37,953 nt of DNA from a virus. Its lineage: Duplodnaviria; Heunggongvirae; Uroviricota; Caudoviricetes. The notes beneath the pieces were generated by a model. It worked only from the letters and a program-made list of their open reading frames with translations. It did no database searches and was not told the DNA's origin. Below are positions 7,239 through 37,953 of the stretch, in pieces. The position numbers and the translations under genes are program-made. Where the stretch lies: the IMG/VR virus record IMGVR_UViG_2563366924_000004. One strand, 5' to 3'. Numbering within the stretch: the stretch's first letter is position 1; every line of letters begins with the position of its first letter.

Positions 7239-7243
7239 CCCAC

Positions 7244-7269
7244 AAAAAAGCCCGCCTGAACCGGCGGGC
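7244..7269 (-). terminator. intrinsic terminator hairpin between lom and stf
   Basis: Minus-strand stem gcccgcc/ggcgggc with 6-nt loop followed by TTTTTTGTGG, ending about 10 nt before the stf start codon. Confidence 0.5.
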
Positions 7270-7296
7270 TGTCATAACACTGTGTTACCTGGCTAA

Positions 7297-7896
7297 TCAG
7301 AATTTATAACCGACACCCACGATGAAACCGTCAGTGCGCCAGTCACCACTGCCGGAGCCTTCATAAGCAATATCAATGGCCACGGATTCGGTCGGGTTAA
7401 ACTGCACGCCAGCCCCCCACGCCAGAGACGTGTTGCTGTGGCGACCGTCATCACTTCCGGTCAGCACATCGTGCGTTTTCCCCTTGTTGTCAGTTACGCG
7501 GAGATAATCCCCGAAGAAAGTCGACACACGGCTGTAAGCCACACCCGCCATCGCATACACGCTGAACCATTCATTCACGCGCACAGACGGCCCCGCCATT
7601 ACGCTGAACCAGCGGTTACGCACGGAATCTTCATGCCAGCGGGTATCGCTGTAATGCGTTTTTTGCTCATCTTCAGCGTTGGCATAACTGAATGACGTAA
7701 TCAGCCCCAGCGTGTCCGTAAACTCATAACGGTATTTCACGTTAATCCCGTTCAGATTATCGCTGCCGGGAGCGTTCGTACGGGCATTAAGATACCCTGC
7801 GCTCAGTGTGGCCTGCTGCTCAGACGCCCATGCAGGCGCACCGGATACGGCCAGACAGATGGCTGTGGACAAAATGGCTGCACAAACTTTACGCAT
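7297..7896 (-). CDS. lom: Lom/Ail-family outer membrane protein, 199 aa
   Basis: Signal peptide, beta-barrel OMP pattern with C-terminal GYKF; located between J and stf as in lambda. Confidence 0.85.
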
Positions 7897-7963
7897 AATT
7901 ACCTCTCGCTTTTCTGCAATAAAAAAGGCGCCATTTCTGGCGCCCGTATATGGGTTATAAAAT

Positions 7964-10900: not shown

Positions 10901-11443
10901 CATCCGGATATTAAACGGGCGCGGCGGCAGGTTATCCACCACCACCGAGGCCAGATACTGCGAGGTGGTTTTGCCCTTAATGGTGATGTCTTTTTCCGTC
11001 ACCCAGCCACCATTACGCTGTATCTGAACCAGCAGGCGAACTTCCGACGGATTCCGGTCCCCCTTTGAGGTGGTTTCCACCAGTGCCTGCACACCGAAGG
11101 TAAAGCGCAGTCGGTCGATGTTTGCCGACGTGATGGCGCGGGTGATCGGCGTGTCGTATTTCACTTCCGTACCCAACACCGTCTCGGAGCCGGAGGATTC
11201 AAATCCCTCCGGCGGAGTCTGCTCCTGCTCACCGGCCCGGAACACCACCGTGACGCCGGAGATATTGGTATTCCCCTCACTGTCCAGCACCGGCGTACTG
11301 TTCAGCAGCACGCTTTTTAATCCCTCCACCGGACCTTCAATCGGCCCTTCGCTGATGGCATCGATCACACTCAGCAACTGCGTGGTCTTCAGGTTGTCCT
11401 TCGCTTCGCGCGGAGTATGCCCCTTACTGCTTCCTTTACCCAT
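7964..11443 (-). CDS. J: tail tip host specificity protein J, 1159 aa
   Basis: Large ORF in lambda J position and of similar size (lambda J is 1132 aa). Confidence 0.9.
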
Positions 11444-11503
11444 TCCTCACGCTCCATAAACGACAAAACCGCCCGCAGGCGGTTTCACATAAAACATTTT
11501 GCA

Positions 11504-12145
11504 TCAGCGACCAATCACCACAACCTGACCACCATCCCCTTCATCTGCTGTGCTGATCTCCTGAGATACCACCCGCGACCCCACACGCATTTCACCGTAC
11601 AGAACGGGCAGGACATTGCCCTGGGCAACCATATTATCCAGTGAAGAAAAATAGGTGTTCTGTTTGCCGTTATCCGTTGTCTGTGTGCGGGGAGTTCTGG
11701 CTTTCGGTGCCAGCATCTGCGCCACACCACCGAGCACCATACTGGCACCGAGAGAAAACAGCAGATTACTCGCCATAATTCCTACCCCCGGCATCCATAT
11801 AGCAACCGCCATAACAGCCGCCCCCAGCACAGCCTGAAACACACCGCCACTTTTGGCTCCTGCCAGACGCGGCACGATATGGATCACAGCACCATTTGCC
11901 AGCGGTTCATTAAGACGGGCTGATAATTCATTTTCGCCTGCATCACGCCCGGCAATGCGCACCTGATACCAGCCCTCATTCAGTTTCTGGCGAAACGACG
12001 GAAGCTGCGTGGCCAGCGCCCGGATGGCTTCGGCCCCCGTTTTCACACGAAGGTCGATGCGGCGGCCAAATCGTTGTAAATCCCCGTAAAGGCAGATGCG
12101 TGCCATGCCCGGTGACGCCAGAGGGAGTGTGTGCGTCGCTGCCAT
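11504..12145 (-). CDS. I: tail assembly protein I, 213 aa
   Basis: Lambda I-like sequence (MAATHTLPLASPGMARICLYGDL); overlaps the 3' end of K. Confidence 0.85.
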   Translation of the reverse strand: MAATHTLPLASPGMARICLYGDLQRFGRRIDLRVKTGAEAIRALATQLPSFRQKLNEGWYQVRIAGRDAGENELSARLNEPLANGAVIHIVPRLAGAKSGGVFQAVLGAAVMAVAIWMPGVGIMASNLLFSLGASMVLGGVAQMLAPKARTPRTQTTDNGKQNTYFSSLDNMVAQGNVLPVLYGEMRVGSRVVSQEISTADEGDGGQVVVIGR

Positions 12146-12786
12146 TTGTCGGTGTACCTCTCTCGTTTGCTCAGTTGTTCAGGAATATGGTGCAACAGCT
12201 CGCCGTCGCCGCAGTAAATGGCGGCATGATTCGGCACCGATGAACCAAAACAGCACAGCAGCACATCGCCCGGCTGCGCCGCTGACAACGGCACCTGATA
12301 CAGCCCTGTGGCCTCCAGATTATCCAGATAGAGATTCTGACCGTGACGCCACCAGTCATCCTCACGATGAAAATCAGGCATCTCAATTCCCGCCAGATGG
12401 TAAGCATCCCGGAACAGCGTGTAACAGTCCGTCACCCCGTGCTCAAAGCGCCGCCCGGTAAGATGTGGCACACAGCGGAACTTGTGAATCGCCCCCCGGC
12501 AGACCAGCCACCACGGCAAATCACTCTGCACCTGCAGCCGCCGGTCGGCCTCACTCAGCCAGGGCAGAGCACCGGGGTGACTGTGGACCAGCGCCACAAT
12601 CTCACCCTGCATTTCTGCCCGCAGCCAGTCCTCCGGAGCCATCCGGAAATACGCCTCCGGCTCACCGGAGATATTCACGCAGGGAAAATATCTTTCCCCT
12701 TCCGGCGTGCTTACCACGAAGCCGCACGACTCCGCTGGCGCACATCGCCGGGCGTGCGCCAGAATCGCTGATTCTGTCTCTGTCAT
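12043..12786 (-). CDS. K: tail tip assembly protein K, long form 247 aa
   Basis: Lambda K-like sequence; start tightly coupled to the L stop. Confidence 0.8.
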   Translation of the reverse strand: MTETESAILAHARRCAPAESCGFVVSTPEGERYFPCVNISGEPEAYFRMAPEDWLRAEMQGEIVALVHSHPGALPWLSEADRRLQVQSDLPWWLVCRGAIHKFRCVPHLTGRRFEHGVTDCYTLFRDAYHLAGIEMPDFHREDDWWRHGQNLYLDNLEATGLYQVPLSAAQPGDVLLCCFGSSVPNHAAIYCGDGELLHHIPEQLSKRERYTDKWQRRTHSLWRHRAWHASAFTGIYNDLAAASTFV

Positions 12787-12791
12787 GGGAT

Positions 12792-13490
12792 TTACTGCGA
12801 AAGTTTGTTAATGGAAAGGAAGCCGCCAAAGTTGCCGACGTTATTGCGAAACTTACAACCGCTCAGGCATTTGCTGCATTTATCCTTCGTGATATCGGAC
12901 GTCGGCTGGTCATATTCATCCGCGACAGCCGGACCGTGATAACCGCACTCATCACCGCGATAGGTCCAGGTGCAGGTATTAGCCAGCATGATGCGGCCCG
13001 GAAAAACGGCACCATCCGTTTCCGTCGGTGTGGAGAGCACAAAGGAAGCACTGACCGCGCTCAGTTCGCTGCACTGCTCGATGCGCCAGCGGCTGATCAC
13101 CTCCTGCTCCGGATCGGCGTCGCTGTTTCCGTTGACGAAGTTCACCGCATCCAGAAAACGGGCGTAAACCTTACGCCGGACCACCGTTCCGCCGACCAGA
13201 CTCTGCAGATCTTCCGCCATCTCGGTGACCATACCGTACAGGTTAGAAACCGTCAGCGTGGGGCGCGTACTGGTGCCTTTGCCATTCAGTTCAAAACCAC
13301 TCCCCTGAATGGGATACGGCTGATACTGTCGCCCCTGCCAGGTGACCGGCTCACCTTTTTCGTTCTGCTCATTACAGAAAAAATAACGTTCTCCACCGAC
13401 CTCTGTCAGGTCGATTTCCCAGAGCACCACGCTGGCCGACTGCTCCGCACGGGTGCATTCATTCAGTGTTTCCTGCCGGATATCCTGCAT
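12792..13490 (-). CDS. L: tail tip protein L, 232 aa
   Basis: Lambda L position and size. Confidence 0.85.
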   Translation of the reverse strand: MQDIRQETLNECTRAEQSASVVLWEIDLTEVGGERYFFCNEQNEKGEPVTWQGRQYQPYPIQGSGFELNGKGTSTRPTLTVSNLYGMVTEMAEDLQSLVGGTVVRRKVYARFLDAVNFVNGNSDADPEQEVISRWRIEQCSELSAVSASFVLSTPTETDGAVFPGRIMLANTCTWTYRGDECGYHGPAVADEYDQPTSDITKDKCSKCLSGCKFRNNVGNFGGFLSINKLSQ

Positions 13491-13819
13491 CAGTTCACCA
13501 CCTGTTCAAACTCTGCGCTGAACTCAACACGCAGCATACTGACCCGCGACGACCATTTTGCGCAGGTCACCTTTATCTGCCGCCACTCATAAGGCGGCGT
13601 CCACAGAAAGGCTTTCCAGCCCCCGTGCTCTTCCAGAAACGACTCCAGTACCGTGGCCTCCTCACGGGGGACAGAAAGCGTCACGCTGTACGTTTTCAGG
13701 TTGGCATTCAGCCCGGCAGGCGCTCGCTGGGAATAGCCATCACCAAAGCGCACCTTTCTTACAGAAGGGGCCGAAGCCACATCCATACCGGGTTTCACTT
13801 TCCAGCGGAAGGTTTTCAT
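13490..13819 (-). CDS. M: tail tip protein M, 109 aa
   Basis: Lambda M position and size. Confidence 0.85.
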   Translation of the reverse strand: MKTFRWKVKPGMDVASAPSVRKVRFGDGYSQRAPAGLNANLKTYSVTLSVPREEATVLESFLEEHGGWKAFLWTPPYEWRQIKVTCAKWSSRVSMLRVEFSAEFEQVVN

Positions 13820-16395
13820 CGTCCACCTCCGGAGAACAGACCACCATCGCGCATCTGTGCCTGGATTTCATCACGGGCACCCTTGCGGGCCATGTCATAC
13901 ACCGCCTTCATCATCTGTGGACCTGGCAGACCATTCGTACCGTCGTTCTGAATCACCACGTGATTGTTCTGATTAAAATTAATGCCTTCAGCCCGCCGCA
14001 TCTGCGCCGGACTTCCGGCACCGCCCACATAACCACCTTCCGCATAGCCCCGCATCAGGCGGTACAGGTTGCCGACACCAATCCGGCTGGTTGCCTCCTT
14101 CGTGAAGACAAATTCACCACGGTGAACAATCCCCGCTGGCTCATATTTGCCGCCGGTTCCCGTAAATCCCCCGGTCGCAAAATGGAATTTCGCCGCAGCG
14201 GCCTGAATGGCTGTACCGCCTGACGCGGATGCGCCGCCACCAACAGCCCCGCCAATGGCGCTGCCGATACTCCCGACAATCCCCACCATTGCCTGCTTAA
14301 GCAGAATTTCTGTCATCATGGACAGCACGGAGCGGGTGAAGCTGCGCCAGTTCTGTTCACTGCCGGTCAGCATCGCCGCCATATTCTGCGCAATACCATC
14401 AAAGGTCTGCGTGGCTGCACTTTTAACCTGCGACATACTGTCCGTGGCACTCTCTTTCCACTCGCTCCAGCCGGACCTGAGGCCTGCCATCCAGTTCCCG
14501 CGAAGCAGGTCTTCAGCCGCCCAGGTCTTTTTCTGCTCTGACATGACGTTATTCAGCGCCAGAGGATTATCGCCATACTGTTCCTTCAGGCGCTGTTCCG
14601 TGGCTTCCCGTTCTGCCTGCCGGTCAGTCAGCCCCCGGCTTTTCGCATCAATAGCGGCCCGTTTTGCCCGTTGCTGCTGTGCGAATTTATCCGCCTGCTG
14701 CGCCAGCGCGTTCAGGCGCTCCTGATACGTAACCTTGTCGCCAAGTGCAGCCAGCTGGCGTTTGTACTCCAGCGTCTCATCTTTATGCGCCAGCAGGGAT
14801 TTCTCCTGTGCAGACAGCTGGCGACGTTGCGCCGCCTCCTCCAGTACCGCGAACTGACTCTCCGCCTTCCACAAATCCCGGCGCTGCTGGCTGATTTTCT
14901 CATTTGCTCCGGCATGCTTCTCCAGCGTCCGGAGTTCTGCCTGAAGCGTCAGCAGGGCAGCATGAGCACTGTCTTCCTGACGATCGCCCGCAGACACCTT
15001 CACGCCGGACTGTTTCGGCTTTTTCAGCGTCGCTTCATAGTCCTTTTTCGCCGCCGCCATCAGCGTGTTGTAATCTGCCTGCAGAATTTTCCCGTCCTTC
15101 AGTGCCTTGTTCAGTTCTTCCTGACGGGCGGTATATTTCTCCAGCGGCGTCTGCAGGCGTTCGTAAGCCTTCTGCGCCTCTTCGGTATATTTCAGCCGTG
15201 ATGCCTCAGACTCGGCCCAGTCCTTTGCTGCCATCTCTCTGGCCTTTTCAAGATCGGCCTGCAACGTGGCGGCTGAAAGCCCAAGTTGCGCATTCGCTCT
15301 GTCCTCCCATGCTCCCCGGAGATTGGCAAGAAATGCTGAGGTTTTACCGCGCCGGTGGCTCCGGCTCTGATACCACTGCCATTTTTTGTCCGCCTCATCA
15401 AAAGCCTTTTCTGCTTTCTCCAGCATTCCCTGGGCAGTGTCCGGGCGACCAATATCCAGCACCGAATCCCACATGGATTTGAATGCCCGTGCTGTCCTGT
15501 CTGCCCAGGTCTCCAGCGTGCCCATGTTCTCTTTCAGGCGGCGGGTCTGGTCATCAAACCCTTTCGTTGCGGCCTCGTTCGCCGCCTGCAATGCCCCGGC
15601 TTCATCTCCGGAACGCTGCAACTGAGCAACATACGCAATCTGCTCCGCCGTCACGTTATGGAACTGACGTGCCATCGCTGTCAGTCCCGACGTCGGGTCT
15701 GTGGTCAGCTTCCCGAAGGCTTCAGCGACCTTGTCCACCTCCACGCCGGATGCAGAGGAGAAACGCGCCACACTCTGGCTGATCGCCTCAAACTGCTCAC
15801 CACCACGCACACCGGCATTCACCAGCGCCGTCAGTGACTCGCTGGTCTGGTTAAACGTCAGCCCTGCCGCCTGCCCGGCTCTGGACAGGACCAGCATACG
15901 ATCTGCCGTCAGTCCCGCCTGATTGCCGGAAAGGACCAGCGTTTTGTTGAAATCGGACAGGGTTGAGTTGCCCTGATACCAGGCATACGCCAGCGCACCG
16001 GTCGCCACCGCCAGCGAGGTGGCCCCCACCATCGGCAGGGTGATCGCACCGGCAAGCCCCCTGAACATGGGGATCATCCCGCCGAAGGAGTCCTTAACCT
16101 GACCACCCTGTTGCAGCAGGATCAGCCACGGGCTTTGCCCGCCTGCAAGCTGCGTGGCCACGTCGGTGAACTGTGCAGGCAGCATACGCATGGCGGCTTT
16201 ATACTGCCCGACGGAAATCCCCGCTTTCTGTGCAGCCAGCGCCTGTCGGCTCAGCGACTGTTCAACGACTGCCGCTGTTTTTTTCGCATCAGTTTCCGTA
16301 CCGGAAAAATGACGCCTGACTCTGGCCATCTGCTCGTCAAATCTGGCCGCATCCAGACTTAAATCAACGACCAGATCGCCTACCGGTTCAGCCAT
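13816..16395 (-). CDS. H: tail tape measure protein H, 859 aa
   Basis: Long coiled-coil-rich protein with Gly-rich C-terminus; lambda H-like N-terminus MAEPVGDLVVDLSLDAARFDEQ. Confidence 0.9.
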   Translation of the reverse strand: MAEPVGDLVVDLSLDAARFDEQMARVRRHFSGTETDAKKTAAVVEQSLSRQALAAQKAGISVGQYKAAMRMLPAQFTDVATQLAGGQSPWLILLQQGGQVKDSFGGMIPMFRGLAGAITLPMVGATSLAVATGALAYAWYQGNSTLSDFNKTLVLSGNQAGLTADRMLVLSRAGQAAGLTFNQTSESLTALVNAGVRGGEQFEAISQSVARFSSASGVEVDKVAEAFGKLTTDPTSGLTAMARQFHNVTAEQIAYVAQLQRSGDEAGALQAANEAATKGFDDQTRRLKENMGTLETWADRTARAFKSMWDSVLDIGRPDTAQGMLEKAEKAFDEADKKWQWYQSRSHRRGKTSAFLANLRGAWEDRANAQLGLSAATLQADLEKAREMAAKDWAESEASRLKYTEEAQKAYERLQTPLEKYTARQEELNKALKDGKILQADYNTLMAAAKKDYEATLKKPKQSGVKVSAGDRQEDSAHAALLTLQAELRTLEKHAGANEKISQQRRDLWKAESQFAVLEEAAQRRQLSAQEKSLLAHKDETLEYKRQLAALGDKVTYQERLNALAQQADKFAQQQRAKRAAIDAKSRGLTDRQAEREATEQRLKEQYGDNPLALNNVMSEQKKTWAAEDLLRGNWMAGLRSGWSEWKESATDSMSQVKSAATQTFDGIAQNMAAMLTGSEQNWRSFTRSVLSMMTEILLKQAMVGIVGSIGSAIGGAVGGGASASGGTAIQAAAAKFHFATGGFTGTGGKYEPAGIVHRGEFVFTKEATSRIGVGNLYRLMRGYAEGGYVGGAGSPAQMRRAEGINFNQNNHVVIQNDGTNGLPGPQMMKAVYDMARKGARDEIQAQMRDGGLFSGGGR

Positions 16396-16822
16396 ACCGG
16401 ACTCCTCCTGCGATCCCTTCTGATACTGTCATCAGCATTACGTCATCCTCCGTCATGTCCGCCACATCCGGGGAAGCGGGGATAACTTCATTCCCGTCCG
16501 GGCCAAAACGAACGCCTCCGGCAAGCCCTGCCGCTTTCTGCATCAGCACATCATCTTCAGGCTCTTCGTCAGCCTCGCGCCGGTTCAGCAGACTGAAATC
16601 CAGCGGATGCATCTCCGGATCGCTGAAAAACAGGCTGAGCACGGTGTACGTCAGCCCGGAAAAGTGCATATCCAGCAGAACATCATGAAAATAATGGGTA
16701 CTGTAAAAGCGGTGCCAGTCGGCATACTCCGTGGATGACATCCCGGCAAGCATGGCGCGCCAGTCGGGTCGCCCCATCTCACGCGCCAGTTTCAGGGCAA
16801 AACTCAGCTCACCGTCGAACAC
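16388..16822 (-). CDS. T: T segment of the G-T tail assembly chaperone, expressed by -1 frameshift from G
   Basis: ORF overlapping the 3' end of G in the -1 frame; slippery heptamer at the overlap. Confidence 0.8.
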   Translation of the reverse strand: MFDGELSFALKLAREMGRPDWRAMLAGMSSTEYADWHRFYSTHYFHDVLLDMHFSGLTYTVLSLFFSDPEMHPLDFSLLNRREADEEPEDDVLMQKAAGLAGGVRFGPDGNEVIPASPDVADMTEDDVMLMTVSEGIAGGVRYG

Positions 16823-17226
16823 TTTCCCGCAGAAACAGGCTCTGCAGGCCCGGCGTCCTCTGCCTGTTCAGGAGCATCATTCACCACAAACTCATACATA
16901 CCGGACAGCCGGTACACCACGTTTTCAGCATGAGAAATTGCCTCTGTGGGCCAGGTGGTAAGCACTTCCTGCTCAATCTGTTTAACGGCTTCATTCATGG
17001 AAGGCAGCTTTGTCTTCTTCGGATGGTTATGCCACAGGGACATCGCCACCAGAAACGCGCCGGTTCTGATGGCGTCTTCCACAGTAAACTTCCGGTTGCT
17101 GTCTGACTCCGCCTGTTCTGCCTGCCGTTTCATCAGGGCGAGATGCTCAATACGCTGCAGGGCTGACAGTTCAGAAAGCGTGACGGTCACACCGTTATGT
17201 TCAAATGATTCGGTTTTCAGGAACAT
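16804..17226 (-). CDS. G: tail assembly chaperone G, 140 aa
   Basis: Lambda G position and size. Confidence 0.85.
   Translation of the reverse strand: MFLKTESFEHNGVTVTLSELSALQRIEHLALMKRQAEQAESDSNRKFTVEDAIRTGAFLVAMSLWHNHPKKTKLPSMNEAVKQIEQEVLTTWPTEAISHAENVVYRLSGMYEFVVNDAPEQAEDAGPAEPVSAGKCSTVS
16822..16828 (-). other. programmed -1 ribosomal frameshift slippery site GGGAAAG (G to G-T)
   Basis: Minus-strand GGGAAAG at the G/T overlap, the same heptamer used by lambda. Confidence 0.75.
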
Positions 17227-17241
17227 CGCTGACTCTCCGGA

Positions 17242-17982
17242 TTAACTGGCGGTGACGTTGATTTCTGCAACCGCAGCAAACTCACCATTACCGGATACGA
17301 CCGGAATGTTGACCTTGCCTGCAGCAACACCTTTCACGGTGATGGTCATACCACTGACCGACACGGTGGCTTTTGTTTTATCCGCAGACACCGCACGGAA
17401 GCTCTTGTCGGTTGCGCCATCCGGCTGGAATGCCACGGTCAGCGTGGTGCTCTGCCCTTTCACTACGGAAGCACTGGCGGGTGTCACCGTCATGCCGGTT
17501 GTCGCCGTCACCGTGCTGCGATCTTCTGCCATCGACGGACGTCCCACATTGGTGACCTTCACCGTGCGGGTAATCACTTCCTTCGCCGTCACCGCCTTAC
17601 CGATACTGCTGACCCAGCCACGGAACACATCGACCGTGCCGTTCGGGAAGCGGATTTTATAGGCACGGGTATCGCCTTCATTAAACCACGCCAGCAGCGC
17701 CTGCTGCCCCTGCTCTCCGGGCATCCACGCCAGCGTGAAGCTGGTATCTCCGGCAGATTTCTGCCCCTGCCCGGTCGCAGTCCAGTCTGCATCTTCATCA
17801 TCGAGATAGCTGTCGTCATAAGACTCAGCGGTCAGTTCGCCGGGCGTCAGGTCTTTAACTTTTGCCAGACGCGACCAGTCAACGTCTGAAAGCGGATTCG
17901 CATAAGGGTCACCACTCCCCTTATAAACCCACAGGGTGGTCCCGGCCCCTTTCACCGGCATTACAGGATTTGGTACAGGCAT
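17242..17982 (-). CDS. V: major tail tube protein V, 246 aa with C-terminal Ig-like domain
   Basis: Lambda V-like sequence from [22 protein letters not shown]; the longer 256-aa ORF starts at a poorer upstream codon. Confidence 0.85.
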
Positions 17983-17989
17983 AGCGTCC

Positions 17990-18385
17990 TCACATTTCAT
18001 AGGTAATGACATAAGTCAGATCGGCTGAACTCCACAGGCCCGCATCATCGTCGCGCCGATAGTCATAGCCGCTGGTCACCATACTGGTGATCAAATCTGA
18101 CAGTGCCGGGATATCACTCATCACCGGATAAATCCGGGACTCCATCCACGCATCCAGCTCTGAATCCGGCACCTGAGCAGGCAGGAAAACTTCAATATGC
18201 AGCTCCGCCTGCCAGGTATCGCTGTCCAGCTCTTCGCCCGTGTATTCAGCGCCGGTGAGATAAACGGCAATTGCCGGAAAATCTTCCTCATCAAAAACAG
18301 CGGGGCGACCATCAAAAAGCGTCGCCCCGGTGTCATGCTTCTCCAGTGCATCCAGTACGGCTGCTCGGAGTTCAGTATGTTTCAT
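17990..18385 (-). CDS. U: tail terminator protein U, 131 aa
   Basis: Lambda U position and size. Confidence 0.85.
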
Positions 18386-18960
18386 CGCTTTATTACCATC
18401 CTCAGTTGATGCTGCAGCGCATAGCCCAGCTCTTTCGGAAGACGCTCACGCCGTATCCGCTCAATATTCTGTTTAAACGCCGTGGTCAGCGGCACCGCCA
18501 TCGGGATTTTCACCACATCAATGGGGTAACGATTTTTCCCGGCCACACGCTGCATGACATGCCAGCGGCCATTTTTCAGTTGCTGAATAAACGCGCCGGG
18601 AATACGACGGTTTCCCACCACAAGCACGCTGCCGCCACCTTTCAGGGCTGAACGCTGCCCCTTTTTACGACGCCTGCGTCGGGACAGGACAATCCGCGCG
18701 TTACCCAGCTTTATTACGGGCAAATCCCCCCGGTTAACCCTGATTCTGGCCTGCGGATTTTTGACCGTGGCCCTTTTCAGCCTGGCCCTTTCCTTTACCA
18801 GTTTCCGGCGTACCTTTGTCTCACGGGCAACCTGTGACGCCGACTGCGATATCGCGGATGAAGCAACGCGGTTAATGGCCATTGCGGCGGCACCGGGCAC
18901 CGCCGTTCTTCTGATACGGCTGAGGTTTTCAACGGCCTGCTCAAGACCTTTTATGGCCAT
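18382..18960 (-). CDS. Z: tail completion protein Z, 192 aa
   Basis: Lambda Z position and size. Confidence 0.85.
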   Translation of the reverse strand: MAIKGLEQAVENLSRIRRTAVPGAAAMAINRVASSAISQSASQVARETKVRRKLVKERARLKRATVKNPQARIRVNRGDLPVIKLGNARIVLSRRRRRKKGQRSALKGGGSVLVVGNRRIPGAFIQQLKNGRWHVMQRVAGKNRYPIDVVKIPMAVPLTTAFKQNIERIRRERLPKELGYALQHQLRMVIKR

Positions 18961-18971
18961 ACATCCCCCTT

Positions 18972-19325
18972 TCAGCGGCGACGGTTAACGGCAGGCGGTA
19001 CGCCCCGCCCAAGCCAGAGATGACAGCTTCCGCCATCATCCGGCGAAATCCGGTCTATCCAGAAGTTTTCCTCACCGATGGTCAGCGTGTCGCCGCGCCG
19101 CAGCTGCCGCACATCATCAGTCCGGACAAACAGGGACGGGCTGGAGCCTTCAACGCGCACGCCCTGTCCGGCATAGCTGATATTTTCAGGGTCATCAAAA
19201 ACACCACGTATCACAGCACCGGACTGCTCACCGGATGTCATGGTGGCTGACGTTCCCATGTACCCGCGTATCGTTTCATCGGCGCGGGCAATGGCAGCAT
19301 CGAACAGGTTATCGAAATCAGCCAC
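18972..19325 (-). CDS. FII: head-tail joining protein FII, 117 aa
   Basis: Lambda FII position and size. Confidence 0.85.
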   Translation of the reverse strand: MADFDNLFDAAIARADETIRGYMGTSATMTSGEQSGAVIRGVFDDPENISYAGQGVRVEGSSPSLFVRTDDVRQLRRGDTLTIGEENFWIDRISPDDGGSCHLWLGRGVPPAVNRRR

Positions 19326-19336
19326 AGCGCCTCCCG

Positions 19337-19732
19337 TTATTGCATTCTGGCCAGGCCGCGCTCTGTCATTTCAGCTGACACACCGGCAGAGACACGGAAC
19401 GCCGTTCCCGGCAGCACAAATGCCACAGCCTCATCCCGCGTGGCGTGAAGTGCATCAGTATGCAGCGTCACCAGTGCCACAACCGTGACCAGATCAGCCG
19501 TATCAGTCACGGTATCCGGCTGCGCTGATACCACCTCATTTTCATGTCCGGTCAGCGCATTTTCCGGGCTGACAGATGTGTCCTGACCGGCAGCGTCATC
19601 CGTGTCATCAATCTCCTCTTCCAGCTCTGCCACACGGAGCACCAGTTCTTCTTTCGTCCCCGTCAGGCTGACATCACGGTTCAGTTGCTCACCCAGCACC
19701 TGAAGACGGGCAATCAGTTCATCTTTCGTCAT
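19337..19732 (-). CDS. FI: DNA packaging protein FI, about 132 aa
   Basis: Start taken at MTKDELIARL inside the 144-aa ORF; lambda FI-like. Confidence 0.8.
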   Translation of the reverse strand: MTKDELIARLQVLGEQLNRDVSLTGTKEELVLRVAELEEEIDDTDDAAGQDTSVSPENALTGHENEVVSAQPDTVTDTADLVTVVALVTLHTDALHATRDEAVAFVLPGTAFRVSAGVSAEMTERGLARMQ

Positions 19733-19773
19733 GGACTCCTCCACAGAGAGAAAATGGCCCCGAAGGGCCATGA

Positions 19774-20799
19774 TTACGCCAGTTGTACGGACACGAACGC
19801 ATCAGGGTCAGCCAGCAGCATCAGCGGTGCTGACTGAATCATGGTGAACTCACGCGCCGGATCGCCGGTGGTCACCCAGTTTTTCGGGTAGCGGGCAGAG
19901 GCGTTAATACCTTCGCGCTGTGCGTCCGCATCCTGAATGCAGCCATAGGTGCGCAGACCGCGTGCCTGAGTGTTCCCCAGCACCATCGTGTTGTCCGGAA
20001 GGAAGTTCTTTTTGACGTCGTTTTCCACGTACTGTCCGGAATACACGACGATCGCCGTATCGCCATACATCCCCTTATAGGACACCGCTTCGCCCAGGTC
20101 TTTTACCGCTGTCTCCAGCTCGGAATTAGAGCCGCGACGGGTATCCAGCTTCTCCCTGACGGCTTTGAAGGAACGGAACAGCGCCCAGCCTTTCGGATCA
20201 AACACGATGATATTCACCACTCCGCTGGCGTTCAGCGCATAGGCTTCGATATCGTCGGTCGGGTCATACGTGGACTTGTCACGCTTGCTCCACTCCGTAC
20301 CACCGGACTGTGTGATGTTGTTCGCCGCACTGCGGCCCATATCCACCTCAACCGGATCGAAGGCTTCACCGGTCATGGTGTATTTGCCCTTAAGCACAGC
20401 AGAAACTGCCTGCATCTCTTCGACCTGAGCAATGGCCAGCTCTTCGTCTCGCATGTTCTGCATGATGATGCGACGGCGGCGGTAAGCCGGGTCCGCCAGA
20501 TTCTGCGGATCTTCATCCGGCAGGCGACGCAGGGTCATCTGCGGATTCACCTCATGCTTCGGCTTGACATATCCCGGTGTAAATTCAGAGGTGGAGCCGC
20601 CACGGGAGCGGATAACCTCACCGGAAACAATCGGCGAAACGTACAGCGCCATGTTTACCAGTCCCGGAATTTGTGAGAGATAGACTTTCTCCGTGGTGAA
20701 GGGATAGCTCTCACGGAAAAAGAGACGCAGAAACAGCGGATCAAACTTAAATTTCTTCTCATTTGCCGCCAGCAGCTGGGCGGTTGTGTACATCGACAT
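19774..20799 (-). CDS. E: major capsid protein E, 341 aa
   Basis: Lambda E-like sequence from MSMYTTAQLLAANE. Confidence 0.9.
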   Translation of the reverse strand: MSMYTTAQLLAANEKKFKFDPLFLRLFFRESYPFTTEKVYLSQIPGLVNMALYVSPIVSGEVIRSRGGSTSEFTPGYVKPKHEVNPQMTLRRLPDEDPQNLADPAYRRRRIIMQNMRDEELAIAQVEEMQAVSAVLKGKYTMTGEAFDPVEVDMGRSAANNITQSGGTEWSKRDKSTYDPTDDIEAYALNASGVVNIIVFDPKGWALFRSFKAVREKLDTRRGSNSELETAVKDLGEAVSYKGMYGDTAIVVYSGQYVENDVKKNFLPDNTMVLGNTQARGLRTYGCIQDADAQREGINASARYPKNWVTTGDPAREFTMIQSAPLMLLADPDAFVSVQLA

Positions 20800-20854
20800 A
20801 AAAAAATCCCATAAAAAAAGCCGCACAGGCGGCCTTTAGTGATGAAGGGTAAGG

Positions 20855-21187
20855 TTAAACGATGCTGATTGCCGTTCCGGCAAACGCGGTCCGTTTTTTC
20901 GTCTCGTCGCTGGCAGCCTCCGGCCAGAGCACATCCTCATAACGGAACGTGCCGGACTTGTAGAACATCAGTGTGGTGCTGGTCTGGTCAGCAGCAACCG
21001 CCAGAATGCCAACGGCAGCACCGTCGGTGGTGCCATCCCACGCAACCAGCTTACGGGTGGAGGTGTCCAGCATCAGCGGGGTCATTGCAGGCGCTTTCGC
21101 ACTCAATCCGCCGGGCGCGGTTGCGGTATGAGCCGGGTCACTGTTGCCCAGCGGCTGGTAATGGGTAAAGGTTTCTTTGCTCGTCAT
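20855..21187 (-). CDS. D: head decoration protein D, 110 aa
   Basis: Lambda D-like sequence from [12 protein letters not shown]. Confidence 0.85.
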
Positions 21188-21196
21188 AAACATCCC

Positions 21197-22496
21197 TTAC
21201 ACTGGTGTGTTCAGCAAATCGTTAACGGCATCAGATGCCGGGTTACCTGCAGCCAGCGGTGCCGGTGCCCCCTGCATCAGACGATCCAGCGCAGTGTCAC
21301 TGCGCGCCTGTGCACTCTGTGGTGCTGCGGCCAGAATGCGGCGGGCCGTTTCCACGGTCATACCGGGGGTTTCTGCCAGCACGCGGGCCTGTTCTTCGCG
21401 TCCGTGAGCCTCCTCACAGTTGAGGATCCCCATAATGCGGCTGTTTTCTGCCGCAACCGCAGCGGTGATCTGCGCGTTCACGTCCGGCTGCGCCGCGCTG
21501 GCGTTTTCGCCCTCCGTCGCTGGCACCACGTCAGTAACGTCAGCCTGCGAAGCAGTGGCTGAAACAGTTGTTGATTGAGTCTCTTTGGTCATTCGCCCTC
21601 CTGAGAGACGGGATTTACGTGCATCCAGTGCATCACGCATAACGGTGATCGCATCGGTGCTGTTGACAAGTTCATCAGCCAGTCCGGCATCAATGGCCTC
21701 CTGACCGCTGTACACTGCAGCCTCGGTATCCAGCACAGCCTGCACGGACAGGCCGGTATATGCCGACACCTTCTGCGCAAACATCCGGCGGGTTGCATCC
21801 ATCCGGGACTGCAGTGTCTCCCGGACGTCATCCGGAAGATGGCTGTAGGGGTTGCCATCCACCTTATGGCTGCCGCTGTAAATCAGCGTGATTTCCACGC
21901 CCTGTTTCTCCAGCGCAGCGCCGTAATTACTGTGAGCCATCATGACGCCGATGGAGCCTGTCCGTGCGGTCTGCGTGACCAGACGTCGGGAGGCGGCACT
22001 GGCAAGCAGCTGACCTGCACTGCAGTTCATGTCGTTGGCCAGCGCCCATACCGGCTTTATGTCACGCACACGGGCGATGATGTCAGCGCAGTCAAATGCT
22101 CCCGCCACCATTCCGCCCGGTGTGTCCATATCGAGCAGAATGCCGTCCACCATCGGGTCGCTGGCAGCCTGTTGCAGACGGGCGATAATGCCGTTGTAAC
22201 CGGTCATCCCCGAGTACGGCTGCAGCGCCCGCGTCCGGCTGACCAGCGTGCCGGACACCGGCAGCACGGCGATGCCGTTCATGACCTGATAACTGCGGGC
22301 CTGTCGTGGTCCGTCATCATCACCGGATAATGCCAGCGTCGCGGGTGCCTCCTGGGCAGTCAGGCTGTCGCCGGACACCGCATCCGTCAGGCGGCTGATC
22401 CCAAGCTGGCCTGCAAGCGCACAAAAGAAAACCCGCGCATAGGCGGGTTCAAGCATCAGCGGCTCATTAAAGGCCATGCTGGCAATATGCGGGAGA

Positions 22497-22516
<20 letters not shown>
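21197..22516 (-). CDS. C: capsid assembly protease C (ClpP-like serine protease) with nested scaffold Nu3 reading frame, 439 aa from GTG
   Basis: GTG start giving VTAELRNLPHIASMAFNEP; overlaps the 3' end of B by 20 nt. Confidence 0.85.
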
Positions 22517-26197
<3,681 letters not shown>

Positions 26198-26223
<26 letters not shown>

Positions 26224-26743
26224 TCAGCAACCCCGGTATCAGTTCATCCAGCGCGGCTGCTTTGTTCATGGCTTTGATGATATCCCGTTTCAGGAAATCA
26301 ACATGTCGGTTTTCCAGTTCCGGAAAACGCCGCTGCACCGACAGGGGGATCCCGTCGAGAATACTGGCAATTTCACCTGCGATCCGCGACAGCACGAAAG
26401 TACAGAATGCGGTTTCCACCACTTCAGCGGAGTCTCTGGCATTCTTCAGTTCCTGTGCGTCGGCCTGCGCACGCGTAAGTCGATGGCGTTCGTACTCAAT
26501 AGTCCCTGGCTGGAGATCTGCCTCGCTGGCCTGCCGCAGTTCTTCAACTTCCCGGCGCAGCTTTTCGTTCTCAATTTCAGCATCCCTTTCGGCATACCAT
26601 CTTATAACGGCGGCAGAGTCATAAAGCACCTCATTACCCTTGCCACCGCCTCGCAGAACGGGCATTCCCTGTTCCTGCCAGTTCTGAATGGTACGGATAC
26701 TCGCACCGAAAATGTCAGCCAGCTGCTTTTTGTTGACTTCCAT
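26198..26743 (-). CDS. Nu1: terminase small subunit Nu1, 181 aa
   Basis: Lambda Nu1-like N-terminus MEVNKKQLADIFGASIRTIQNWQEQGMPVLRGGGKGNEVLYD; cos site immediately upstream. Confidence 0.9.
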
Positions 26744-28830: not shown

Positions 28831-29043
28831 TCAAAGCGCCACTACATGAACAGCGGCAGGACCTTTAGGTCCGTTCTCAATACCAAATTCAACTTCCTGA
28901 TTCTCAGTTAATGTTTTGAAATCGTTGCTCTGAATTGCTGAGAAATGGACAAACACATCTTTGCTGCCATCTTTCGGCGTGATGAAACCAAAACCTTTTT
29001 CAGGGTTAAACCATTTTACTAAACCAGTCATTTTGTTAGACAT
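28831..29043 (-). CDS. cspI: cold shock protein CspI, 70 aa
   Basis: CspA-family cold shock domain with RNP motifs KGFGFI and VFVHF; matches my recollection of CspI. Confidence 0.9.
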
Positions 29044-29393
29044 AATTATTACCTTTTGAAGAAATTAGCCCTTGGGCAGAATGGTCCGAAAAAAAATATC
29101 AGAGAGAAAAACCAACAAGGAAATCTCAAGAGGTACAAATAATAAAATTATAACAATGACTGCTTCAGATAAATTTGTAACAAACCAGAACACCATTAAC
29201 GCATGATTAACCACCCATAGCAAGGATTACTTTTGTAAAGAAAAACACAGCAATGAAAGAATAGCTTTATTTATTAATAAAACGTGTCATTCTGATTAAG
29301 ACCTTTTATCTTACCCTTAAGATTTCAGGAATTTTGGCTCATGGAAGAGTCCTTTTTATTTAAATTTTACATTCCGCGGGTAATGACTCCAAC

Positions 29394-29897
29394 TTATTGG
29401 TAGTGTTTTATGTTCAGATAATGCCCGATGACTTTGTCATGCAGCTCCACCGATTTTGAGAACGACAGTGACTTCCTGCCCAGCCTTGCCAGATGCTGCC
29501 TCAGATTCAGGTTATGCCGCTCAATGCGCTGCGTATATCGCTTGCTGATAACGTGCAGTTCTCCCTTCAGGCGTGATTCATAAAGCGGCCAGCCATCCGT
29601 CATCCATACCACGACCTCAAAGGCCGACAGCAGGCCCAGAAGACGCTCCAGCGTGGCCAGCGTGCGTTCACCGAATACGTGCGCAACAACCGTCCTCCGT
29701 ATCCTGTCATACGCGTAAAACAGCCAGCGCTGGCGCGATTTAGCCCCGACATAGCCCCACTGTTCGTCCATTTCCGCGCAGACGATGACGTCACTGCCCG
29801 GCTGTATGCGCGAGGTTACCGACTGCGGCCTGAGTTTTTTAAGTGACGTAAAATCGTGTTGAGGCCAACGCCCATAATGCGGGCAGTTGCCCGGCAT
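29394..29897 (-). CDS. insB: IS1 InsB reading frame, 167 aa (normally expressed as InsAB fusion by frameshift)
   Basis: Matches IS1 InsB sequence. Confidence 0.95.
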
Positions 29898-30091
29898 CCA
29901 ACGCCATTCATGGCCATATCAATGATTTTCTGGTGCGTACCGGGTTGAGAAGCGGCGTAAGTGAACTGCAGTTGCCATGTTTTACGGCAGTGAGAGCAGA
30001 GATAGCGCTGATGTCCGGCGGTGCTTTTGCCGTTACGCACCACCCCGTCAGTAGCTGAACAGGAGGGACAGCTGATAGAAACAGAAGCCAC
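29816..30091 (-). CDS. insA: IS1 InsA, 91 aa
   Basis: Matches IS1 InsA sequence ([43 protein letters not shown]). Confidence 0.95.
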
Positions 30092-30141
30092 TGGAGCACC
30101 TCAAAAACACCATCATACACTAAATCAGTAAGTTGGCAGCA

Positions 30142-30417
30142 TCACCGGATTTTCAATCTTAAAGGAGTACTGATGCTGCAGATAAGACTCAACTTTTCTG
30201 ACAATTTTTCTGCTACTTCCAGGAAGACTTGCCGGACGCTCATTCTGGCTGCTGCCTCATAAAACTCCAGCGTAGCTCCTTCAACACGGTCCATGGCGAC
30301 ATCCAGGCCAAAAATTTCACCGTCAAAGCGTTCTTTGTCCTGTAAGGCTACAGTTACCGTAACTTTATTCTCAAAATTACGGACTCCTTTCACAACCAGT
30401 TCATAGCCTTGAGTCAT
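30142..30417 (-). CDS. ydfR: YdfR-like phage protein with 3' end running into IS1, 91 aa as encoded
   Basis: ORF starts 5 nt after the holin stop; its last sense codon and stop codon lie inside the IS1 terminal repeat. Confidence 0.6.
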   Translation of the reverse strand: MTQGYELVVKGVRNFENKVTVTVALQDKERFDGEIFGLDVAMDRVEGATLEFYEAAARMSVRQVFLEVAEKLSEKLSLICSISTPLRLKIR

Positions 30418-30421
30418 TGGA

Positions 30422-30637
30422 TTATTCTCCTCTCGCAGCCTTACGCCTGTCTTCTTTAATCTTGAAATAAAGATTTGTCAGATACGTCAGCAGGCCAAAA
30501 ACCAGGCTACCCAGCACACCGATTGCAGCCCACTGTGACGGAGTTACTTTATCGAGTAACTGCAATGCCCAGAAACCAGCATTACCCGCCGATGTGCCAT
30601 AGGCAACACCTGTTGTTAACTTATCCATTGATTTCAT
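30422..30637 (-). CDS. essQ: class II holin, phage 21 S-type, 71 aa with dual-start motif
   Basis: MKSMDK dual-start motif, two TM segments, basic C-terminus RKAARGE; S21-like. Confidence 0.85.
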
Positions 30638-30856
30638 ATCCTCACCCCGATGTACACGGATGGTGCAATATGTTTGAAAAGATCGGAGTCTACGGGGTAG
30701 TTTTGACAGCACACGCTGTTCTCAACGGCGCTAAAGAAACATACACATTAAAAATGTGAGTAATTATTTTGAAAGAAAGTCATATATAAAATAATAATAC
30801 GAGAAATGTTTTCATATTTAGTGTACTGTATACGGCCATTTATACAGGAAAAGCCT

Positions 30857-32540: not shown

Positions 32541-33293
32541 TTATCTCGTCACCTTCCTCAATTGCGCTTCCGCGTATGCTTCTTCCTGCCAGCACTTTGT
32601 TACCAGTTTACCAATGACGTCCGCATACCCCTTATACCACTGATAATCGGTCAGGTCTGGTACCAGCTTCTGGACATGACGTCGTGCCAGCGTGGTCGGT
32701 AAACGACTAAACCGGTTTCCATTACAACGCCCACAAATCTTATATACCGGTACGCCATGAAACCGGGTTCTTTTTTCATCCAGAACAATCCCTTTACCCT
32801 TACACCCTCTGCACGCTGTGCTGGCTTCGCCCTTACCATGGCAATGCTGACATAGTTCCTTCACCCATTCTTCCTTGATTACAGATTCCCCGCGTCTGTA
32901 GTGTTTCACCACTTCGCGCAATACATTATAAAATCCCGTACCTGAACAATGCTCACAGCGAGCCTTACTTGCCGCAGACCTGGAGTAATCAGCAAAGGCA
33001 AAACTCACGAGGTAAGGAATAATCTGTAACCGGATTTCTTCACTCAATTTGTTCAATGTCGGGTTATCCAGTGCCATCGCGTAATTTAGCAGGCCTTCAA
33101 TCGCAAACTGAGGGTCCTGAACACCAACTTTTGCCAGAAATAAGGCCAACCCAAGTGGTGCTTTCGACTGCACCATCCCCTGCGCTGCCATTACATCCGT
33201 AATTGTTAAACAACCGGTGCCTGTCGCTGGAGCGTCATCGCTCAATTTTGGAGATTTTGGGGAGTAATATTTTGGTAAGGCTTCAAGGTTCAT
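32541..33293 (-). CDS. quuQ: late gene antiterminator Q, 250 aa, with Cys-rich zinc-binding region
   Basis: Start at MNLEALPKYY with GGAGAA RBS; CxxC clusters; position immediately upstream of the late promoter and holin operon. Confidence 0.8.
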   Translation of the reverse strand: MNLEALPKYYSPKSPKLSDDAPATGTGCLTITDVMAAQGMVQSKAPLGLALFLAKVGVQDPQFAIEGLLNYAMALDNPTLNKLSEEIRLQIIPYLVSFAFADYSRSAASKARCEHCSGTGFYNVLREVVKHYRRGESVIKEEWVKELCQHCHGKGEASTACRGCKGKGIVLDEKRTRFHGVPVYKICGRCNGNRFSRLPTTLARRHVQKLVPDLTDYQWYKGYADVIGKLVTKCWQEEAYAEAQLRKVTR

Positions 33294-35249: not shown

Positions 35250-35864
35250 AGCCTGCTTCTCCTTGCCTTTCGGCACGTAAGAGGCTAACCTACATGTGTC
35301 TAGCATGAAATTGGCCTCAGATTAATGTTAAGCGTCTTGCAGGACGCGTAATGTTAACTGGGGCTTTTCTCTATCTGCCTTTGGTGTTCATGCCTGAGGC
35401 AGATAGCCTCAAGCACCCGCAGCAATTCTACTTAACTCACGTCACCTCGCCAATATAAAATCAATCAGAAAGGCGATCCGTAAGAACAACAGCAAGACAA
35501 TAAATTGCCATTACAGCCGCAATAGCTAGCGCACATTTGAGAACCAGCACGACAACCTCCTGTATTGGACGTACACCAGTCCTGATAAATATGAGGCTGT
35601 CTCATCATTGATTCAATATAACTATTGGGTATAGTTTCTGTGATTTTGTTCTGTAGAAATGGAACACAACAACCAGTCTCCACCAGCACTTCTTTAAATA
35701 CGCCAAGTCCGACGCAAGCTAACCTTCTAGTCCGCTTTGAGCGAACTGTGGAAGCTCGCAAATGTTGTTACATCTGATGAAGGCATTACTCAAAGGAGGG
35801 GATAGTAGTCAACGTGGAGCAGGCCATGTTAGTATTTTTATACAATTCGACTAAGGGAAAAACA

Positions 35865-36053
35865 ATGAGGCTTTACATAATAGGAAATGGATTTGACATG
35901 CGTCATGGCTTACCAACAGGATACAAGCACTTTAAGTCGTATGTAGAAAAAAATGACCAAGATCTATATGACGCGATAGAAGAATACATTCCTGCTGGGG
36001 ACGAGTGGAATGAGTTAGAAAATGCTTTAGGTGAAATTGATTATGAGCTTTGA
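35865..36053 (+). pseudogene. AbiH-like abortive infection gene, N-terminal 62 codons only, truncated by IS3
   Basis: MRLYIIGNGFDMRHGLPTGYKHF matches the AbiH-family N-terminal motif as I recall it; stop codon TGA is the first 3 nt of the IS3 terminal repeat. Confidence 0.6.
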
Positions 36054-36973
36054 TCCTACCCACGTAATATGGACACAGGCCTAAGCGAGGTTCTTGTTTT
36101 CAAATTGTTCCGGACTGAGGCCGCCACACCAACTGTGCCGCCGCCACCGATTGTAATCACATTCGATATAATTAAACACCGTTGCCCGCATTATTTCCCG
36201 GCTGATAAAGTGTTCTCCATGGATACATTCCACTTTCAGCGAATGAAAGAAGCTTTCCACGCAGGCATTATCGTAGCAGCAACCTTTTGCGCTCATACTT
36301 CCACGCAGATTATGCCGCTTCAGTTGCGCCTGATAATCTGCTGAACAGTACTGGCCTCCACGGTCCGTGTGAACGATAACGTTCCGGGGCCTCTTACGCC
36401 GCCACAGCGCCATCTGCAGGGCATCGCAGGCCAGTTGCGCCGTCATGCGTGGCGACATTGACCAGCCAATAACGGCACGTGACCACAGGTCAATGACCAC
36501 TGCCAGATACAGCCAGCCTTCATCTGTACGTAAGTACGTGATGTCTCCTGCCCACTTCTGGTTCGGGCCACTGGCGTAAAAATCCTGCTCCAACAGATTT
36601 TCTGACACAGGCAGGCCGTGTGCGCGGTAGCTGACCGGGCTGAACTTCCGGGAGGCCTTTGCCCTCAGTCCCTGACGGCGCAGGCTTGCCGCCACGGTTT
36701 TTACGTTAAAGGGGTAACCCTGAGCACGCAGTTCATCCGTCAGGCGTGGGGCACCGTAACGCTGTTTTGACCGGGTAAAAGCCGCGAGGACAACGCTGTC
36801 GCAGTGTTGGCGGAACTGCTGACGCGTGCTTATCCTTGTCCGCCGCTGACACCACGTATACCAGCCGCTGCGGGCCACCCGGAGCACGCGGCACATTGCT
36901 TTGATGCTGAACTCAGCCTGATGTTTTTCAATAAAGACATACTTCATTTCAGGCGCTTCGCGAAGTATGTCGC
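36051..36973 (-). mobile_element. IS3: IS3 insertion sequence, partial (right end and orfB), interrupted by IS30
   Basis: Terminal repeat TGATCCTACCCACGTAATATGGACACAGGCC at 36051; complete orfB; sequence stops where the IS30 end begins. Confidence 0.9.
36081..36947 (-). CDS. insF: IS3 transposase orfB (InsF), 288 aa
   Basis: Matches IS3 orfB sequence with DDE integrase core. Confidence 0.9.
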
Positions 36974-37953
36974 TGTAGATTCAATTGGTCAACGCAACAG
37001 TTATGTGAAAACATGGGGTTGCGGAGGTTTTTTGAATGAGACGAACATTTACAGCAGAGGAAAAAGCCTCTGTTTTTGAACTATGGAAGAACGGAACAGG
37101 CTTCAGTGAAATAGCGAATATCCTGGGTTCAAAACCCGGAACGATCTTCACTATGTTAAGGGATACTGGCGGCATAAAACCCCATGAGCGTAAGCGGGCT
37201 GTAGCTCACCTGACACTGTCTGAGCGCGAGGAGATACGAGCTGGTTTGTCAGCCAAAATGAGCATTCGTGCGATAGCTACTGCGCTGAATCGCAGTCCTT
37301 CGACGATCTCACGTGAAGTTCAGCGTAATCGGGGCAGACGCTATTACAAAGCTGTTGATGCTAATAACCGAGCCAACAGAATGGCGAAAAGGCCAAAACC
37401 GTGCTTACTGGATCAAAATTTACCATTGCGAAAGCTTGTTCTGGAAAAGCTGGAGATGAAATGGTCTCCAGAGCAAATATCAGGATGGTTAAGGCGAACA
37501 AAACCACGTCAAAAAACGCTGCGAATATCACCTGAGACAATTTATAAAACGCTGTACTTTCGTAGCCGTGAAGCGCTACACCACCTGAATATACAGCATC
37601 TGCGACGGTCGCATAGCCTTCGCCATGGCAGGCGTCATACCCGCAAAGGCGAAAGAGGTACGATTAACATAGTGAACGGAACACCAATTCACGAACGTTC
37701 CCGAAATATCGATAACAGACGCTCTCTGGGGCATTGGGAGGGCGATTTAGTCTCAGGTACAAAAAACTCTCATATAGCCACACTTGTAGACCGAAAATCA
37801 CGTTATACGATCATCCTTAGACTCAGGGGCAAAGATTCTGTCTCAGTAAATCAGGCTCTTACCGACAAATTCCTGAGTTTACCGTCAGAACTCAGAAAAT
37901 CACTGACATGGGACAGAGGAATGGAACTGGCCAGACATCTAGAATTTACTGTC
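36974..37953 (+). mobile_element. IS30: IS30 insertion sequence, left end to window edge (partial in window)
   Basis: Left terminal repeat TGTAGATTCAATTGGTCAACGCAACAG at 36974 followed by the IS30 transposase gene. Confidence 0.9.
37036..37953 (+). CDS. insI: IS30 transposase (InsI), N-terminal 306 codons; runs off the window end
   Basis: MRRTFTAEEKASVFELWKNGTGFSEIANILGSKPGTIF matches IS30 transposase; no stop before the window edge; absent from the ORF track for that reason. Confidence 0.9.
   Translation, partial: MRRTFTAEEKASVFELWKNGTGFSEIANILGSKPGTIFTMLRDTGGIKPHERKRAVAHLTLSEREEIRAGLSAKMSIRAIATALNRSPSTISREVQRNRGRRYYKAVDANNRANRMAKRPKPCLLDQNLPLRKLVLEKLEMKWSPEQISGWLRRTKPRQKTLRISPETIYKTLYFRSREALHHLNIQHLRRSHSLRHGRRHTRKGERGTINIVNGTPIHERSRNIDNRRSLGHWEGDLVSGTKNSHIATLVDRKSRYTIILRLRGKDSVSVNQALTDKFLSLPSELRKSLTWDRGMELARHLEFTV

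Follow-up and report, generated by a model that had tools for sequence, protein, structure and literature searches.

The window analyzed here, the whole stretch of 37,953 nucleotides (IMG/VR record IMGVR_UViG_2563366924_000004), consists of an E. coli lambdoid prophage of the Qin type, integrated at ydfJ. Both the ydfJ integration site and the order of genes around the csp morons agree with those of K-12 Qin, and over the aligned parts the window is 99.97 to 99.99% identical to the chromosomes of ABWA45, 2021CK-01361, and VREC0761 (LR536430). The uninterrupted lysis cassette of an E. coli Survcare321 prophage (locus L002) served as the reference for the interval deleted from the window. The features of the window, read from position 1, are as follows.

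1-1284, ydfJ', followed by ynfT, ydfK, and pinQ
3307..26743, minus strand, lambda-like virion module of 23 open reading frames (ORFs), from tail-fibre assembly to Nu1/nohA
26921-26932, minus strand, lambda cosN 12-mer GGGCGGCGACCT, upstream of nohA
Between cosN and IS1, the morons ynfO, ydfO, gnsB, ynfN, ynfR, ymcF, and cspI
28831..29043, minus strand, cspI, the first gene kept to the left of the deletion, annotated as CspI in identical genomes
29352..29378, no strand assigned, left flank ending in cattccgcg, equal to L002 up to position 4455, 27 nt past the rzpQ stop
29379-30146, minus strand, complete IS1 of 768 bp, with the IRR end at 29379 and the IRL end at 30146
29394-29897, minus strand, insB'
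29816-30091, minus strand, insA
29834-29840, minus strand, A6C motif for the -1 frameshift (TTAAAAAAC at 29834-29842)
30142-30417, minus strand, ydfR-like ORF (DUF1327, E=5e-41), of which 30147..30417 lies outside IS1
30422-30637, minus strand, essD, intact phage-21-type class II holin of 71 aa (PF04971)
Between essD and ydfT, the genes ynfU, cspB, and cspF
32541..33293, minus strand, ydfT, intact Q antiterminator of 250 aa (PF03589, E=4e-54)
35826..37953, no strand assigned, right-hand scar composed of an AbiH fragment, an IS3 fragment, and IS30, with the early region absent
36081-36971, IS3 fragment, interrupted by the IS30 that runs from 36974 to the window end

All 23 ORFs of the virion module are open. 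On the other side of the lysis region, ydfT lies upstream of cspF/cspB/ynfU and the holin gene, an order also found in K-12 Qin and in phage Tritos; ydfU is a frameshifted pseudogene, and hokD lies beyond it. The window carries no repressor, replication, or integrase region beyond hokD, and the scar is followed by a truncated rspA in the nearest genomes. A promoter and terminator scan of positions 28600 to 33400 returned 13 promoter-like sites, no real excess over the 10.7 in shuffled sequence, and so has no bearing on a late promoter.

What is left of the lysis genes is the remnant of a phage 21-type cassette, in which the holin gene is present and no SAR endolysin or Rz/Rz1 gene lies downstream of it. 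A preliminary description of this DNA had assigned essD to the S21 type, and EssD indeed matches the PF04971 profile ("Bacteriophage P21 holin S") over 63 of its 64 positions (E=4e-34). The protein is 100% identical to EssD of the intact reference cassette, and its N terminus, MKSMDK, carries the Met1/Met4 dual-start motif; pinholin behavior is assumed from this homology. The same description had noted the lack of any endolysin or Rz/Rz1 ORF. Searching the window by tblastn with RrrQ and RzpQ recovered neither an endolysin nor a spanin (best E=0.08), and lysozyme and spanin are likewise absent from the PGAP annotation of genomes approximately 99.98% identical over the whole window.

Between IS1 and essD, the ydfR-like ORF is truncated by the element and has lost 12 codons and its stop. 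Its present stop, TGA (30142-30144), falls within IS1, as do two bases of the codon before it. The tail that reads into the element is already out of frame, however: a homopolymer contains four T residues (30194-30197) where relatives have five, and because of this 1-bp deletion the final ∼15 codons no longer follow the frame of authentic YdfR. The native frame is kept over approximately residues 1 to 75, and PGAP flags ydfR as "frameshifted."

IS1 elements are about 768 bp in length and are bounded by imperfect terminal inverted repeats of ∼23 bp (GGTGATGCTGCCAACTTACTGAT / GGTAATGACTCCAACTTATTGAT). The copy already placed between ydfR and cspI by the preliminary description proved to be complete. 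Its termini (GGTAATGACTCCAACTTATTGGT... and ...ATCAGTAAGTTGGCAGCATCACC) form imperfect inverted repeats, with a single base different from the usual IRR, its ORFs match PF03811, PF12759, and PF03400 (InsA Zn-ribbon/HTH and DDE_Tnp_IS1), and the programmed frameshift is annotated by PGAP in an identical IS1 copy. The element shows 0 differences across seven of eight related loci, all with 768 bp; the copy in ECONIH4, for which only length was compared, is 1 nt shorter. In the 6 kb to the left of IS1, six related loci differ among themselves at no more than two positions, and each of them differs from the window at 4.

Simple insertion of IS1 generates a direct target duplication of 8 to 9 bp. 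At the window IS1 no such duplication was found: on re-inspection, the flanks, cattccgcg on the left and ggattttca on the right, agree at 2 of 9 positions and are not a direct repeat, as had been claimed. A separate IS1 in locus L002 served as a positive control and is bordered by a clean 8-bp duplication (AACCATGA); because this duplication was detected, one at the window IS1 would have shown. The missing duplication counts against a simple insertion but not against the identity of the element as IS1, and it is expected if deletion or recombination came after insertion.

The intact gene order in Survcare321, as in K-12 MG1655 Qin, is cspI-rzpQ (with rzoQ embedded)-rrrQ-ydfR-essD. Tritos (OV696610) and PhiR42_1 (PV340562), both viable temperate phages, match the reference cassette at 99.7 to 100% identity from S to Rz. 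Uninterrupted relatives do carry genes between ydfR and cspI, and none was found in which the two genes abut, the outcome that the preliminary description had named as refuting. In the alignment of the window to L002, homology on the left ends at L002 position 4455 and homology on the right restarts at position 5547, inside ydfR, in each case at the first base outside the IS1 end. The alignment thus defines the deleted interval as L002 4456-5546, a total of 1,091 bp that is gone from exactly an IS end, and IS1 does stand in place of the endolysin and spanin genes, as first proposed. Within the deleted segment lie rrrQ, rzpQ together with the rzoQ nested in it, and the 3'-terminal 40 nt of ydfR. 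RzpQ is an i-spanin-like DUF2514 protein, and the nested ORF, which is in the +1 frame and has the lipobox LTSC, bears the name rzoQ in the K-12 annotation. RrrQ belongs to the PF00959 lysozymes. Its alignment with 3hde, the structure of the phage 21 endolysin, begins at residue 9 and thus takes in the N-terminal segment rich in Gly and Ala that a SAR endolysin is expected to have.

The distribution of the junctions was determined with 300-bp probes across each junction against 5,426 complete E. coli genomes. The cspI-IS1 junction was present as one unbroken match in 23 of these genomes, 14 of which also carry the IS1-ydfR junction and hence the exact allele of the window. These 14 span several countries and a range of sources, among them wastewater, mussels, and humans; because the junctions recur in genomes of such varied origin, an assembly artefact is excluded. 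Eight further genomes (ECONIH4, six 0H strains, and CAVP776) carry an IS1-essD junction instead. In this allele the IRL end joins essD at the equivalent of window position 30432, ydfR is wholly gone, and the final three codons of the holin are exchanged, which yields a 75-aa fusion ORF. The series accordingly has one constant cspI-IS1 junction and distal ends in either ydfR (14 genomes) or essD (8 genomes). The hokD-AbiH'-IS3::IS30-rspA' scar at the right end is common to 0H26, the essD-junction genome examined, and most ydfR-junction genomes, which agree with it in all but one SNP; 2021CK-01361, with the ydfR junction, has a different right end. Some matches appeared to contain an extra ∼800 bp. 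This was rejected because the junction coordinates show the same 768-bp IS1, and the excess is an artefact of a joined cross-match between cspI and cspB (82.6% identical over 115 bp).

The ninth genome without the ydfR junction, 2273-PO3, has the arrangement cspI-IS1-MFS transporter. We considered this arrangement as a third, much larger nested deletion and rejected it. In sister genomes, the MFS transporter belongs to a uspF-IS1-MFS locus on the opposite side of the prophage, at a distance of about 250 kb; this locus is inverted and already has an identical IS1 of its own. The junction in 2273-PO3 is therefore a product of IS1-by-IS1 homologous recombination. The reciprocal junction in this genome is uspF-IS1-abgT', indicating further rearrangements.

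Ancestral states were sought both with the real junctions and with a synthetic query in which IS1 is joined to CATTCCGCG and the sequence downstream of rzpQ, the site on the ydfR side being GGATTTTCA. None of the 5,426 complete genomes has a simple IS1 insertion at either site, and none has IS1 at either endpoint with the lysis genes retained. Genomes of this lineage contain about 25 to 40 IS1-matching places each, compared with a median of 10, and independent IS1 insertions inside rzpQ, rrrQ, and ydfR occur in other lineages. The number of independent nearby insertions, about ten, is roughly what IS1 density multiplied by genome number would give, a count that is confounded by clonal inheritance, and no enrichment of IS1 in this cassette is claimed.

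The explanation that best accounts for these observations, and which we consider highly probable, is that IS1 landed in the lysis cassette of a decaying Qin-type prophage and that an adjacent deletion subsequently removed the endolysin and spanin genes. A single IS1 copy would have landed in a cassette of the order S(essD)-ydfR-R(rrrQ)-Rz/Rz1(rzpQ/rzoQ)-cspI, and a deletion from exactly one end of the element would then have taken out the 1,091 bp. Such a deletion would proceed by intramolecular replicative transposition, in which the InsAB' transposase would link both IS1 ends to a nearby target on the same replicon. The intervening segment would depart as a non-replicating circle with one IS1 copy, and on the chromosome a single IS1 would stay behind, bordered by the old junction at one end and a new one at the other and lacking a target duplication; either junction of the window allele may be the original insertion junction. 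Later, in a sub-lineage, the deletion would have grown by another 285 bp and reached the 3' end of essD, with the cspI-IS1 junction unchanged. Because the right-end scar and the SNPs are shared, this larger deletion most probably grew from the state seen in the window, on the assumption of no recombination.

IS1-mediated adjacent deletion was reportedly established in the classical gal and plasmid systems by Reif and Saedler in 1975 and by Turlan and Chandler in 1995. The two nested deletions, which share an unvarying junction beside a resident IS and lack a target duplication, reproduce this classical picture. In the Lenski long-term lines, adjacent deletions without target duplications and their stepwise enlargement beside a resident IS have been described (PMC11708052).

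The preliminary description had likewise favored an IS1-mediated adjacent deletion. The association of the deletion with IS1 stands, and the nested series fits adjacent deletion, but the end product is the same as that of recombination between two direct-repeat copies of IS1. In this alternative, an insertion downstream of rzpQ and another of the same orientation within ydfR would have been followed by RecA-dependent recombination that deleted the interval together with one IS1, giving an identical-looking product without a target duplication. We regard this as unlikely, though it retains appreciable weight. The lineage is rich in identical IS1 copies and has about 25 to 40 matching places per genome, and the window's own IS1 copy recombined with another IS1 250 kb off in 2273-PO3. 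Given the insertions within rzpQ, rrrQ, or ydfR elsewhere, a second local IS1 is not far-fetched. However, recombination calls for extra insertions within 1.4 kb and in the right orientation, plus one more for the essD allele, and an IS1 at either endpoint alongside retained lysis genes occurs in 0 of the 5,426 complete genomes. A nested series with one fixed end is also more simply produced by repeated adjacent deletion. Adjacent deletion accounts for the nested series without calling on additional insertions that have never been sampled, and it is for this reason the most likely mechanism.

The loss of the endolysin and spanin genes might also have been selected, either because a leaky SAR endolysin became costly after loss of the repressor or because the pinholin was domesticated as a depolarising or suicide toxin, possibly under Q control. 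SAR endolysins do not require a holin for their release, which can be spontaneous (PMC9239132), and a derepressed cassette could be costly for that reason. Positive support for selection comes only from survival of the holin: both of its transmembrane segments are kept in 22 of 22 deletion genomes, and the larger deletion halts only three codons into essD. Yet the deletions represent only two events in one clonal group and give no statistical signal, survival of the holin is expected by chance for deletions of 1.1 to 1.4 kb, and the full cassette is kept in K-12 Qin and in many other cryptic copies. Selection therefore seems to us an improbable cause.

Very improbable is the one-step capture of IS1 at a double-strand break during an unrelated deletion, with no prior resident IS1. 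This would fit the lack of a simple-insertion ancestor among the 5,426 complete genomes, and comparable events, in which an IS and a deletion arise together and no target duplication results, were proposed in the case of IS5 and IS481 (PMC11708052). It is opposed by the occurrence of two right endpoints with one identical left junction and IS1. Because both endpoints share this junction and element, at least one of the deletions arose beside an already resident IS1. Finally, the idea that nothing was deleted, whether because ydfR and cspI never had genes between them or because an IS1 was collapsed in assembly, can be dismissed: homology to the intact cassette reaches both IS1 ends and ydfR is cut mid-gene, K-12 Qin and active phages show the uninterrupted order, and the junctions are identical in 14 independent complete genomes.

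Pinholins of the phage 21 type form nanometre-scale holes that depolarise the membrane and are lethal once triggered, and lysis in addition needs the SAR endolysin and spanins (PMC9239132). By analogy, the lone holin of the window, if expressed, could depolarise and kill the cell and would degrade neither the wall nor the outer membrane. Q-dependent transcription of the holin is plausible, given that ydfT is intact and that the synteny Q-cspB-S is also found in the active phage Tritos. For users of strains carrying this variant, expression of Q or of the holin would thus be expected to kill without lysis.

The preliminary description had portrayed a prophage with intact virion genes and cos site that was unable to lyse. 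The first part is borne out by the 23 of 23 open ORFs and by cosN, but the picture misleads, since the early region is absent and ydfU is frameshifted. Because the whole early region has been lost, the prophage is cryptic whatever its lysis genes, and on its gene content it is predicted to be incapable of induction, replication, and excision. Loss of the lysis genes is therefore not the limiting defect. It is a further stage in the decay of an already cryptic prophage, from which the early region was lost independently, and this Qin variant is a dead element without early region, endolysin, or spanin. Such decay is ordinary and well understood, and the case is not new in kind, the exact allele being present in at least 14 public genomes. 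The deletion explains why a holin without an endolysin stands beside an otherwise lambda-complete virion module, and it would provide a clean natural example of an IS1-adjacent deletion growing stepwise, as in laboratory evolution.

Among known systems, Tritos and PhiR42_1 have the order Q-cspB-S-ydfR-R-Rz-cspI-ymcF-ynfN-gnsB and, unlike the window, are complete phages that lack IS1 and whose lysis and early regions are both intact. The phage 21 cassette (S21 pinholin, R21 SAR endolysin, and Rz/Rz1) shares its holin family and the dual start with the window. It also resembles the reference cassette, whose RrrQ aligns with R21 (3hde) and whose spanin pair is of the embedded type. The two differ in that ydfR (DUF1327) lies between S and R in the reference cassette; the window, unlike phage 21, keeps S alone. 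The classical and Lenski IS-adjacent deletions resemble that of the window in the retained resident IS, the absence of a duplication, the one constant junction, and the enlargement; they were watched experimentally, whereas the window deletion is reconstructed from natural isolates. K-12 MG1655 Qin (b1543-b1579) is, like the window, inserted at ydfJ and shares with it the order ynfT-ydfK-pinQ-tfa...nohA-ynfO-ydfO-gnsB-ynfN-cspI ... essQ/essD-ynfU-cspB-cspF-ydfT(Q)-ydfU-hokD. Unlike the window, it retains rzpQ/rzoQ-rrrQ-ydfR and the early region (relBE, dicA/dicC, dicB, and intQ), whereas its virion genes between stfQ and nohA are lost and the window has kept 23 virion ORFs. The two variants have thus decayed in opposite ways: in K-12 the lysis genes survive and the virion genes are gone, and in the lineage of the window the reverse holds.

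The 1-bp deletion in ydfR (T4 versus T5, window 30194-30197) was common to all 14 genomes with the window allele. Despite this deletion, residues 1-75 of ydfR remain in the native frame, and they contain the YdfR segment, residues 1-72, for which binding to the N-terminal domain of RNase E has been reported (PMC13232886). A second frameshift was found in gnsB:

27985-28157, minus strand: gnsB, frameshifted in the window

Here the T-run at window 28095 is T7 in the window versus T8 in all six related loci, a 1-bp deletion. The gnsB frameshift is confined to the window in this comparison, and may reflect either a genuine mutation or a sequencing error at the homopolymer.

Recombination took place between the window-type IS1 copy and another IS1, in inverted orientation, beside uspF/MFS approximately 250 kb away; the loci compared were L004 (strain 2273-PO3), L010 (strain 0H26), and L011. 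In 2273-PO3 the reciprocal junction reads uspF|IS1|abgT', pointing to further IS1-mediated rearrangements in that genome. Other insertion sequences were detected in relatives:

L002 (Survcare321 prophage) 3087-3854: independent IS1 inside ymcF, 8-bp duplication AACCATGA, cassette intact elsewhere
L001 (strain ABWA45) 9432-12047: ISCro1 (IS66-family) insertion, corresponding to window position ~20800

The L002 IS1 is 96.6% identical to that of the window, and in several other lineages IS1 lies inside rzpQ, rrrQ, or ydfR. In ABWA45, ISCro1 separates the major capsid gene from the decoration gene; the window lacks this insertion.

Both ends of the window hold further features, as does the region directly upstream of Q:

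35826-37953: right-end scar of the prophage (loci compared: L001, L008, L013, and L014)
33307-34355: ydfU (DUF968), directly upstream of Q, a PGAP pseudogene

The scar runs from an AbiH fragment through an IS3 interrupted by IS30 to a truncated rspA (rspA was seen in the nearest genomes); the losses comprise relBE, the dic genes, intQ, rspB, and part of rspA. A different right end occurs in strain 2021CK-01361, where foreign chromate-resistance DNA follows relE-relB-ydfV'. At window 2619-7238, the pinQ invertase gene adjoins tail-fibre and tail-fibre-assembly genes, a possible invertible host-range segment comparable to those of other lambdoid and Mu-like elements. Finally, ydfU is frameshifted throughout the window's lineage, whereas the K-12 copy is intact.
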